Of a stretch of 64,000 bases of DNA, positions 50,191-51,102 are shown piece by piece. The translations under genes were made by a program, and so were the position numbers. The stretch spans positions 1,088,001-1,152,000 of the forward strand of contig CAVVPN010000011.1 of assembly GCA_963750165.1 (NCBI GenBank). Reading direction: 5' to 3'. This DNA is from an uncultured Gemmataceae bacterium (GTDB taxonomy: Bacteria > Planctomycetota > Planctomycetia > Gemmatales > Gemmataceae). The notes beneath the pieces were generated by a model that did no database searches, was not told where the DNA came from, and saw nothing but the letters and a program-made list of their open reading frames with translations. Every line of letters begins with the position of its first letter. Position 1 is the stretch's first letter.

Positions 50191-50760
50191 TTACGACTTA
50201 GTCCCAATCAGGAAGTTCGCCGTAGCCGCCGGTGAAGGCGTCTTCGGGCGCCCCTCCCTTTCGTGGCTTGACGGGCGGTGATTGAGGTCGTTGAATCCTA
50301 CGCCTCGTTCCCACTGGACAAGCGCGTCTAGCGCATCCAGCGAGCCCCGATGCATTTGTGCTGCCAACTGCTTGGTTAATTCCAGCCCTTGCTCCGTGAG
50401 GTGTTCCTCCCGTTCGATGAGCGCGATCACCTGTCGAAACAGGTCGAAATCGCGCTTCTTACTGGGGAACCGCAGGGGGTGCTGTTGGAAGAATGGGACG
50501 ATAACTTCCCGCAACGCCACCCGGTTGCTAACCTCATAGCGAAAACAAAGACAATGGTTTGGTCGCCGATCACGTTGGACATAAACCTTGCCGGCTCCAA
50601 AGAACTCGCGGACTTCATCGAGCACGGGCCGATCAGCGGCCCGCAGTTTGAGGCAGAATTTGGGTTCTACCTTCGCCCGACGGCGTTGCGAGAGATTGAA
50701 GTGAACGGCAAAGCAGCCTTCACCATCGGTCAACCCGACCAGATAGTCGGCAGTCAGCAT
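50191..50760 (-). CDS. Single-motif LAGLIDADG homing endonuclease (intron-encoded)
   Basis: YLVGLTDGEGCF, FFGAGKVY, IVPFFQQHPL...KKRDF, HLTEQGL; SD AAGGGAG. Confidence 0.92.
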   Translation of the reverse strand: MLTADYLVGLTDGEGCFAVHFNLSQRRRAKVEPKFCLKLRAADRPVLDEVREFFGAGKVYVQRDRRPNHCLCFRYEVSNRVALREVIVPFFQQHPLRFPSKKRDFDLFRQVIALIEREEHLTEQGLELTKQLAAQMHRGSLDALDALVQWERGVGFNDLNHRPSSHEREGRPKTPSPAATANFLIGTKS

Positions 50761-51102
50761 CAGGTTTCTCCCTTCGGACGAAGGTTCGCTTCGTCTTACT
50801 ATGGATCAGCTGACTTCCTACCGCGTCGTCAGGATTCCTGCCGCAGTAGGATCTCCTTGGGTCACCTGTTGAACTATTTCCCACATTCCCAGGCAGGGTT
50901 ATTCAAGGCATCTTCGCCGAAGTACACATACGGCTCGATGCACCCCGTCACGCCCGAGACTGCGGTTCGGTCAGGACCCTCCGGACGGCGGTTACCCGTT
51001 ACGTCCTGTCCATACCCTACCGACCCGAGTCCTGCAAAGAGAGACCGGATTGGGGTGGATTTGCACCACCTAGTTCAAAAGGCTGCCAAGCGCCTTTAAT
51101 TG
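50281..51102 (-). ncRNA. Group II (IIC-like) intron at 16S position 1396, 822 nt
   Basis: Splits GUACA|CACCGCC; domain V with CGC triad (50312-50342); domain VI with bulged A at -8; 3' AU; EBS1 UGUAC in a hairpin loop (50922-50926). Confidence 0.85.

Follow-up and report, generated by a model that had tools for sequence, protein, structure and literature searches.

A probable group II intron that carries a gene for a LAGLIDADG endonuclease in place of a reverse transcriptase at position 1396 of the 16S rRNA gene of a Gemmataceae-like planctomycete

What is the sequence that interrupts, within the decoding centre, the only 16S ribosomal RNA (rRNA) gene found in a bacterial genome, and how could it be removed? 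The question is raised by a 64,000-nucleotide (nt) stretch of contig CAVVPN010000011.1, called the window below, in which an insert separates positions 1396 and 1397 (E. coli numbering) of the 16S gene. We conclude that the insert is very probably a mobile group II intron that encodes a LAGLIDADG endonuclease and no reverse transcriptase (RT), belongs to the rns-1396/16IS9 family targeting 16S positions 1396-1400, and resides in a Gemmataceae-like planctomycete. The insert and its exons are positioned as follows.

50281..51102, minus strand: whole intron, 822 nt, between 16S positions 1396 and 1397 (sequence; intact junction of relatives; copy without an open reading frame (ORF) in locus L092).
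51103..52499, minus strand: 16S rRNA 5' exon, to position 1396 (Rfam SSU_rRNA_bacteria, 1307.5 bits).
50147..50280, minus strand: 16S rRNA 3' exon, from position 1397 to the 3' terminus, which includes the anti-Shine-Dalgarno sequence (sequence and a separate Rfam match to 50280-50162).

The 16S gene lies on the minus strand (Rfam SSU_rRNA_bacteria match at 51049-52499) and ends in GGAUCACCUCCUUUC, near 50150. The insert splits the universal decoding-centre sequence GUACACACCGCCCGUC; with slashes marking the intron borders, the sequence reads, 5' to 3', ...CCUUGUACA/CAAUUAAAGGCG...CGACCUCAAU/CACCGCCCGUC. An earlier note, made from the sequence alone, had described 822 nt splitting GUACA/CACCGCC, and this is borne out by the uninterrupted junction UUGUACACACCGCCCGUCAAGCC, found at all 29 loci examined among the nearest relatives. 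Owing to a CA repeat, the sequence alone permits three registers (after 1396, 1397 or 1398). The ORF-less copy (L092:751-1143, 393 nt), at the same 16S site in a genome of the same family (G543), has the borders GUACA/AAAUGAAAGG...CCUCAAU/CACCGCC without ambiguity, its 5' border being GUACA/AAAUG. Therefore, the site is 1396/1397 and the intron terminus is AAU (50283-50281). The interrupted gene is the sole BLAST match to this part of 16S in the assembly (9.62 Mb, 12 contigs, 93% complete), in which the intron is present once.

From its 5' end, the intron is composed of the following parts.

51096..51102, minus strand: 5'-terminal linker CAAUUAA, ahead of the GUGYG-like motif (family alignments).
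51091..51095, minus strand: A-GGCG, counterpart of the canonical 5' GUGYG, with the family consensus A-N-G-Y-G (conserved ...AAAnGYGCnnGGCAG in 50 aligned introns).
50851..51090, minus strand: domain I, with helices I(i) and I(ii), IA hairpin (GGUGG-UGCAAAU-CCACC), IC arm and ID arm (RNAalifold, 14 homologs).
51021..51052, minus strand: 32-nt insert within domain I, specific to the window (comparison with L092 and metagenome contig L098).
50916..50934, minus strand: hairpin of exon-binding site 1 (EBS1), GCCG-UAUGUGUACUU-CGGC, with UGUAC at 50926-50922 (complementary to the 5' exon end GUACA, intron-binding site 1, IBS1).
50817..50850, minus strand: domain II hairpin (compensatory changes; inside the Rfam RF01998 match).
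50768..50816, minus strand: J2/3 (GGAAGUCAGC) and domain III (CAUAGUA...GAAGG) (Rfam RF01998 match 50769-50843).
50346..50764, minus strand: domain IV, with the stem CCUGAUGC (50764-50757) / GCAUCGGG (50353-50346) around the endonuclease ORF (the same stem in L092 closes on a 6-nt loop).
50191..50760, minus strand: ORF of 189 amino acids (aa), single-motif LAGLIDADG_1 homing endonuclease, core residues 1-153 (Pfam PF00961, E 1.5e-13).
50310..50344, minus strand: domain V, with a 10-bp lower helix, CGC triad at 50342-50340 with a G.U wobble, 2-nt UU bulge, 4-bp upper helix and loop UAGAC (covariation).
50284..50306, minus strand: domain VI, GAGG-CG...CG-A-CCUC, with a bulged A at 50288 (-8) (sequence and covariation).

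Without the ORF, the ribozyme (domains I-III, V and VI) measures ~390 nt. At the place of the 32-nt insert in domain I, homologs more distant than L092 and L098 have a hairpin.

Because the Rfam comparison, domain V, domain VI, EBS1 and domains I-II agree, the assignment of the insert as a group II intron is supported. In a permissive Rfam scan of window positions 50050-51250, reporting to E≤10, the model group-II-D1D4-1 (RF01998) matches 50769-50843 with 31.2 bits (E 0.0016), covering domain II, J2/3 and domain III. Intron_gpI (RF00028), by contrast, has no match in the insert at E≤10, so that the comparison of group II with group I models suggested in the earlier note favours group II with a score near the threshold. 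The RF01998 score of the ORF-less copy equals that of the window. The homologous intron of an Anaerolineae metagenome-assembled genome (MAG; L002) passes the gathering score of 35 with 36.3 bits and scores 31 bits with RF00029, the model of domains V and VI, against a gathering score of 40.

A species-level genome collection holds 587 relatives of the endonuclease, of which the best 80 of 587 loci were analysed. At 59 of these 80, the motif of 16S positions 1370-1395 is followed by an insert and then by CCGCCCGUC, and 50 pass stricter anchoring as the same intron. The alignment of domains V and VI has 47 rows, from the window, 41 of the 50 anchored loci, the ORF-less copy and metagenome loci L096-L098. 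Eight rows were excluded: L012 contains N, L039 is mis-anchored, the 3' end of L011 is unclear, and L015, L025, L028, L047 and L075 have inserts between domains V and VI.

In this alignment, the 14 pairs of domain V are paired in 99.5% of cells, and 7 of them show compensatory changes (45 distinct rows). The covariation score is reached by 0 of 500 shuffles, and slid controls are 30-42% paired. The four basal pairs are near-invariant (C-G in 43 of 44 rows, U.G in 44, C-G in 44 and G.U in 43), and three of them form the CGC triad, G.U wobble included. Next to the 2-nt bulge, the U.G pair is unchanged in 44 of 44 rows. The domain V with a CGC triad that the sequence had suggested is thus present at 50344-50310, with pairing kept by covariation across homologs; the fold was as first written, and the length was not, as the helix base is two base pairs longer (CU...GG).

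All four outer pairs of domain VI covary, with 80% of cells paired, and the outer helix occurs as UCGG/CCGA, GCAG/CUGC and GCGAU/AUCGC in other rows. The bulged A at -8 and the intron end AU, both named in the earlier note, are found in the window at 50306-50284 (A 50288); by reading, introns of the 1399 class in the candidate phyla radiation (CPR) have the bulged A at -6.

The pairing of EBS1 with IBS1 follows the exon. The loop is complementary to its own exon end in 48 of 51 introns, compared with a mean of 14.8 of 51 after region shuffling. At site 1396, the loop is ..GUGUAC.., with UGUAC for the exon end GUACA. At site 1398, it is GGUGAGU (UGAGU) for ACUCA or GGUGUGU (UGUGU) for ACACA, and at site 1399 GGUGAG (GUGAG) for CUCAC. 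The three non-matches are L004 and two archaeal loci, whose splice-site assignment is uncertain. The loop UGUAC proposed from the sequence is therefore at 50926-50922, and its complementarity to the 5' exon end holds across homologous introns. For domains I-II, RNAalifold applied to the 5' parts of 14 homologs predicts 71 pairs, and 56 of these show compensatory change. The pairs make up helices I(i), I(ii), IA and IC, the ID arm with the EBS1 loop at its end, and domain II.

The earlier note had also claimed that the intron carries a LAGLIDADG endonuclease instead of an RT. In accordance, the PF00961 match spans residues 7-111 of the ORF, and the other ORFs of at least 54 aa in the insert (4 of 4) have no Pfam match at E≤1. 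The endonuclease motif is LVGLTDGEG, with the acidic residue E14, and the window ORF keeps each of the 14 columns in which 30 aligned homologs do not vary, including G9, D12, G13, E14 and G15. The best sequence matches in the PDB are both halves of I-OnuI / I-PanMI-type enzymes (E 8e-28 to 1e-25), with a further match to a 170-aa single-domain protein (E 2.7e-20). The start codon AUG, 7 nt downstream of GGGAG, is part of the domain IV stem's 5' strand, and the codons for ..MHRG are part of its 3' strand. The same stem in L092 closes on the 6-nt loop; therefore, the ORF is an insert in domain IV.

The ORF-less copy keeps all ribozyme domains, with domain IV cut to an 8-bp stem and the 6-nt loop. 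It is 83% identical to the window intron in the 5' part and 95% identical over domains V and VI. One of the only two carriers found in the host order has thus cleanly lost, or never had, the ORF; together with the small number of carriers, this is a signature of mobility.

Those two carriers, the window genome (G000) and G543, are the only ones detected by BLAST among 119 genomes with this 16S region (201 sampled from the order); two other matches, of 23 and 33 nt, are at chance level. The search of planctomycete 16S genes for 1396 insertions, which the earlier note had proposed, thus finds the intron again in one further genome of the order. In the phylum, related endonucleases occur in 8 other genomes of 400 sampled. 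Seven of the 8 are in 23S genes, not 16S, and the locus of the eighth (L090) matches neither rRNA.

Outside the phylum, the 50 anchored introns are mostly from CPR bacteria, with some from Gammaproteobacteria MAGs, one from Anaerolineae (L002), one from Nevskiaceae and two from archaeal MAGs. L002 is the closest of the best 80, with 60% protein identity. By lineage, the introns lie after 1396 (n=5), 1398 (n=18), 1399 (n=26) and ~1400 (n=2, archaeal MAGs), several of these sites being ambiguous by 1-2 nt. The apparent archaeal cases (L011 and L029) come from one Methanosarcinales and one Nanoarchaeota MAG, in whose 16S genes the conserved 5' motif and domain V are seen near 1400. Two Woesearchaeota MAGs encode related endonucleases (L060 and L063).

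Metagenomes hold further relatives. The endonuclease homologs number 85, the window's own included, and 20 of the 85 run into the exon. All 20 read ...AAU/CACCGCCCGUCAAGCCACGAAAG, 18 in one frame and 2 in another. Of the 52 anchored introns, the window and L092 alone have this exon start, which is present in all 29 relatives. At least 19 metagenome endonuclease clusters therefore appear, from their reading frames, to run into the same planctomycete-type exon. The endonuclease scan of metagenomes yields 5 loci. Metagenome contig L098 has the same intron in the same kind of exon. In two metagenome contigs, L096 (from ~870) and L097 (from ~860), 16S breaks off after AAGUCGUAA into unrelated sequence, which points to another insert around position 1500; no such insert is present in the window.

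How does the intron relate to those already known? The earlier note had connected it with the 1396 intron known in giant sulfur bacteria, and this holds, as the site, exon flanks and EBS1 core are those of Thiomargarita entries. The S1396 intron of Thiomargarita and other Thiotrichaceae was reportedly treated by Salman et al. in 2012, according to papers that cite that work. Liu et al. 2026 (PMC13190283) describe one bacterial family of group II introns with a LAGLIDADG homing endonuclease, rns-1396. Its backbone is of the IIC type, domain IV encodes a single-motif endonuclease, every member has a 5'-terminal linker, and EBS2 is lacking. Its Table S4 gives 62 introns, from Thiomargarita, Thiopilula, Thiophysa, Marithioploca and six CPR or uncultured bacteria, with no entry from Planctomycetota; the main text restricts the family to the four Thiotrichaceae genera, to which Table S4 adds the six CPR and uncultured-bacterium entries.

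The window intron shares with rns-1396 the site GUACA/CACCGC, the single-motif LAGLIDADG protein in domain IV, the 5' linker and the lack of an RT. IBS1 (..CUUGUACA), the 3' exon CACCGC and the EBS1 strings of Table S4 fit the planctomycete-type clade. EBS1 10-mers identical to Thiomargarita or Marithioploca entries are found in L092 and L096 (UGUGUGUACC) and in L097 and L098 (UGCGUGUACC). The window's own string is UAUGUGUACU, whose core GUGUAC is common to Thiomargarita entries. The first 400 nt of the T. nelsonii intron (Table S5), compared by eye only, have the same order of conserved blocks as the window intron. The differences are the host phylum, represented by none of the 62 entries; the window's domain V loop UAGAC and extra 32-nt hairpin in domain I; and the endonuclease, which in the planctomycete clade groups with those of Anaerolineae and archaeal introns at sites 1398-1400, not with L081 and L067, other endonucleases of site 1396.

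The second published set is '16IS9', 53 group II-like inserts at ~1400 of CPR 16S, of which 39 have LAGLIDADG and none has an RT, and for which DNA homing is proposed (Tsurumaki et al. 2024, PMC11270868). These have a homologous ribozyme and endonuclease, equally without an RT and frequently with LAGLIDADG_1. However, most copies are displaced by 2-3 nt in the 3' direction, to a site after 1398 or 1399, and their EBS1 is retuned to it; the host here is of a free-living type with a 9.6-Mb genome. In the homologs compared from other clades (CPR, Gammaproteobacteria and Anaerolineae), the 5' part of the ribozyme shares 48-61% identity with that of the window.

Because the site, the exon flanks and the EBS1 10-mers or core are the same, the window intron is, on this comparison, to be counted as a member of the published RT-less rns-1396 / CPR 16IS9 family and not as a new kind of element. 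Literature searches, which largely miss subscription journals, turned up nothing relevant on a planctomycete or Gemmataceae 16S intron, in agreement with the earlier statement that none was known in Planctomycetota. Only the host phylum appears unreported, the family at this site being already published for Thiotrichaceae and CPR. What is new is the Gemmataceae-like host, the 393-nt ORF-less copy in the same family and a well-populated environmental clade.

Group IIC introns as a rule carry an RT gene and are found downstream of terminator or attC hairpins. Their hallmarks are a small domain I that lacks IC2, a CGC triad, EBS3-IBS3 pairing, linkers of the IIC type and the lack of EBS2. The window intron, in contrast, has no RT and lies in an rRNA gene. 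It resembles IIC introns such as O.i.I1 of Oceanobacillus iheyensis in its small ribozyme (393 nt in the ORF-less copy), its CGC triad and a J2/3-domain III close to the RF01998 consensus; it also has no evident EBS2, although no search aimed at EBS2 was made. The description as group IIC-like thus stands for the triad and the size, whereas the subclass label is unsettled in the literature, a bacterial example being placed under IIB1 by Zimmerly & Semper 2015 (PMC4424553) and under IIC by Liu et al. 2026 (PMC13190283). The same ribozyme-endonuclease pairing occurs in group II-LAGLIDADG introns that lie in mitochondrial rRNA genes of fungi and green algae (Toor & Zimmerly 2002; Li et al. 2011; both cited in PMC4424553). 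Their 5' splice site likewise lies upstream of GUGYG, and they have lost EBS2; the I-OnuI / I-PanMI halves are the best sequence matches in the PDB. They differ, in the same account, in their IIB1, IIA1 or IIB2 backbones, mostly double-motif endonucleases, other rRNA sites and location in organelles.

Several observations weigh against this reading of the insert. The RF01998 score of the window is below the gathering score (31.2 vs 35), and RF00029 has no match in the scanned region at E≤10. The domain V loop is the pentaloop UAGAC, not GNRA. The intron does not begin with GUGYG but with the 7-nt linker, and A-GGCG follows at nt 8-12. A 5' linker is reported for all accepted rns-1396 members (Liu et al. 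2026), and Zimmerly & Semper 2015 describe group II introns of rRNA genes, several fungal ones among them, in which splicing takes place 1-33 nt upstream of GUGYG; therefore, the absent 5' GUGYG marks a variant of the family and does not exclude membership.

The reading frame and the protein complement raise further difficulties. The ORF has no stop within the intron and continues for 36 codons through domain V, domain VI and the exon, where 90 nt are read (window region 50191-50301) up to the UAA in GUCGUAA. Its conserved tail ..GSLDALDxLVQWERG is domain V read as protein. The same read-through into the exon occurs in 19 of the 84 other homologs, and most stop after ..VQWERG. No match to the maturase family GIIM is above the cut-off in the genome (best 22.5 bits vs a cut-off of 23), so any protein helper, if the ribozyme needs one, has no candidate above that cut-off. 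The only sub-threshold GIIM match in the genome is at G000:C11:809154-809357 (L131), in a 312-aa open frame.

A search of public sequencing runs for RNA evidence from this organism found none, as no run holds more than 0.19 of the sampled words. Joints that skip the 822 nt occur in two soil metatranscriptomes (10 and 19 contigs), of four runs compared at 90% likeness. These joints have sides of 25-26 nt and exons common to intron-less relatives; they may come from relatives and are uninformative on splicing here. Intron-like contigs at depth 3-8 indicate that relatives exist in those samples, no more. In addition, a 93%-complete assembly in 12 contigs leaves room for an intron-less second 16S copy.

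The last two points bear on the alternative that survives best, although we consider it very unlikely: an intervening sequence that is never spliced, either cut out by RNase to leave a fragmented 16S, as fragmented rRNAs are known in bacteria, or carried by a dead gene alongside a functional copy in unassembled DNA. The negative RNA search and the incomplete assembly are compatible with this alternative. However, the insert lies inside the single-stranded decoding-centre sequence and not at a helix tip, and the exons are otherwise intact. The ribozyme core, the match of EBS1 to the exon, and domains V and VI are kept by compensatory changes across 47-51 homologs, and the ORF-less copy keeps the ribozyme, a conservation that selection for splicing predicts.

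An assembly chimera or a contaminant, in which the insert or the whole 16S gene would be foreign to the planctomycete, has a far smaller chance of being correct. In genomes derived from metagenomes, misassembly and misbinning of rRNA genes are frequent. Here, however, the gene lies inside a 64-kb window of a contig (longest record 2.35 Mb) and adjoins a gene for a PSCyt2/PSD1 (DUF1549/DUF1553) protein directly 3' of 16S (window 46824-49301 and 49376-49849, both minus strand). Over the 298 nt of exon that precede the insert, identity to a genome of the same family is 97%. The same-family genome G543 and contig L098 have the same intron in the same kind of exon, and all 19 exon-reaching homolog proteins read that planctomycete-type exon. 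Among the top 120 homologs of the DAHP synthase of the window, 4 are organism-named, 3 from Gemmataceae and 1 from Planctomycetes. Because of this synthase and the PSCyt2/PSD1 neighbour, we take the host, from its genes, to be a Gemmataceae-like planctomycete. The 23S gene is absent from the window; 16S and 23S are on different contigs, and the rRNA genes are thus unlinked.

The weakest alternative, a group I intron, is suggested by the LAGLIDADG ORF, which group I introns typically carry in bacterial rRNA genes, and by two group I-like inserts in the 23S gene of this genome, but is ruled out by the absent RF00028 match at E≤10 in a scan whose tool flags Intron_gpI in both 23S inserts, by the end bases (the 5' exon ends in A, or C in the 1399 class, not U, and the intron in U, not G) and by the covarying group II features. 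The 23S gene in question (L091, G000:C4:1017302-1020688) is outside the window. Its first insert (L091 1336-2373) has a second LAGLIDADG gene, 28% identical to that of 16S, and an Intron_gpI match of 22.7 bits (E 0.0048); its second (L091 2925-3219) matches Intron_gpI with 31.9 bits (E 8e-6). An insert with an endonuclease recurs at the first of these 23S sites in seven other planctomycete genomes (L083-L089).

We return to the RT-less group II intron. From its sequence and that of its relatives, we infer splicing, the chemistry of splicing, endonuclease activity and homing, as follows. In the pre-16S transcript of the sole gene, the ~390-nt ribozyme (domains I-III, V and VI) would fold, with the EBS1 loop holding the 5' exon end GUACA and domain V serving as the catalytic centre. 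Removal of the intron and ligation of the exons would restore GUACACACCGCCCGUC. Such ligation must occur if the gene is to function, because the decoding centre otherwise would not exist, and removal is needed because the interrupted gene is the only 16S copy found. Removal could proceed by branching at the bulged A or by hydrolysis. Hydrolysis is suggested because the 7-nt 5' linker resembles that of introns with a proposed altered, possibly hydrolytic, 5' cleavage; branching stays in play because the bulged A is intact.

The domain IV ORF would be translated from the precursor or the excised RNA, starting at GGGAG-N7-AUG. The endonuclease, presumably a homodimer, would cut intron-less 16S rDNA at this site, which is universally conserved; the cut would be repaired from the intron-bearing copy, and the element would thus spread as DNA. 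The sporadic distribution (2 of 119 genomes) and the clean ORF-less relative fit the cycle of gain, spread and decay of a homing element.

A wider reading, which we put forward tentatively and hold to be somewhat doubtful, is that the RT-less lineage changes its target register, swaps endonuclease modules and has radiated in soil and freshwater Gemmataceae-like planctomycetes and in archaeal 16S. In a FastTree analysis of 152 endonucleases, a quick method with an arbitrary root, the window falls in a clade of 61 rows, all metagenome sequences, with support of 93; L002 is next, followed by archaeal and then Peregrinibacteria sequences. The endonucleases of L081 and L067 are on a distant long branch and are 38% identical to the planctomycete-clade endonuclease. 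By ribozyme, however, L002, L081 and L067 are nearly equidistant from the window (61%, 60% and 56% identity, respectively), and this discrepancy hints at module exchange without proving it. The planctomycete clade combines the Thiomargarita-type site and EBS1 with an endonuclease nearest to those of Chloroflexota and archaea at sites 1398-1400. On this wider reading, the register would change by ribozyme evolution or by reverse splicing, with EBS1 retuned to each new exon end.

For the family, the RT-less group II intron described here adds a planctomycete with a large genome to the hosts of a rare pairing, that of group II ribozyme and LAGLIDADG endonuclease, until now seen in giant sulfur bacteria and CPR bacteria. 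Since the interruption affects the decoding centre of the sole 16S copy found, the intron must be removed efficiently in vivo. The 393-nt L092 intron offers a compact natural ribozyme from the same host family, suited to the study of self-splicing and of branching versus hydrolysis behind a 5' linker. For the organisms, we presume that primers ending in the 1392-1406 stretch would find their target split by the insert. Longer amplicons would gain 822 bp, so that such planctomycetes could be missed by, or filtered out of, 16S surveys. With at least 19 further metagenome clusters showing the same exon, the affected group may not be small.

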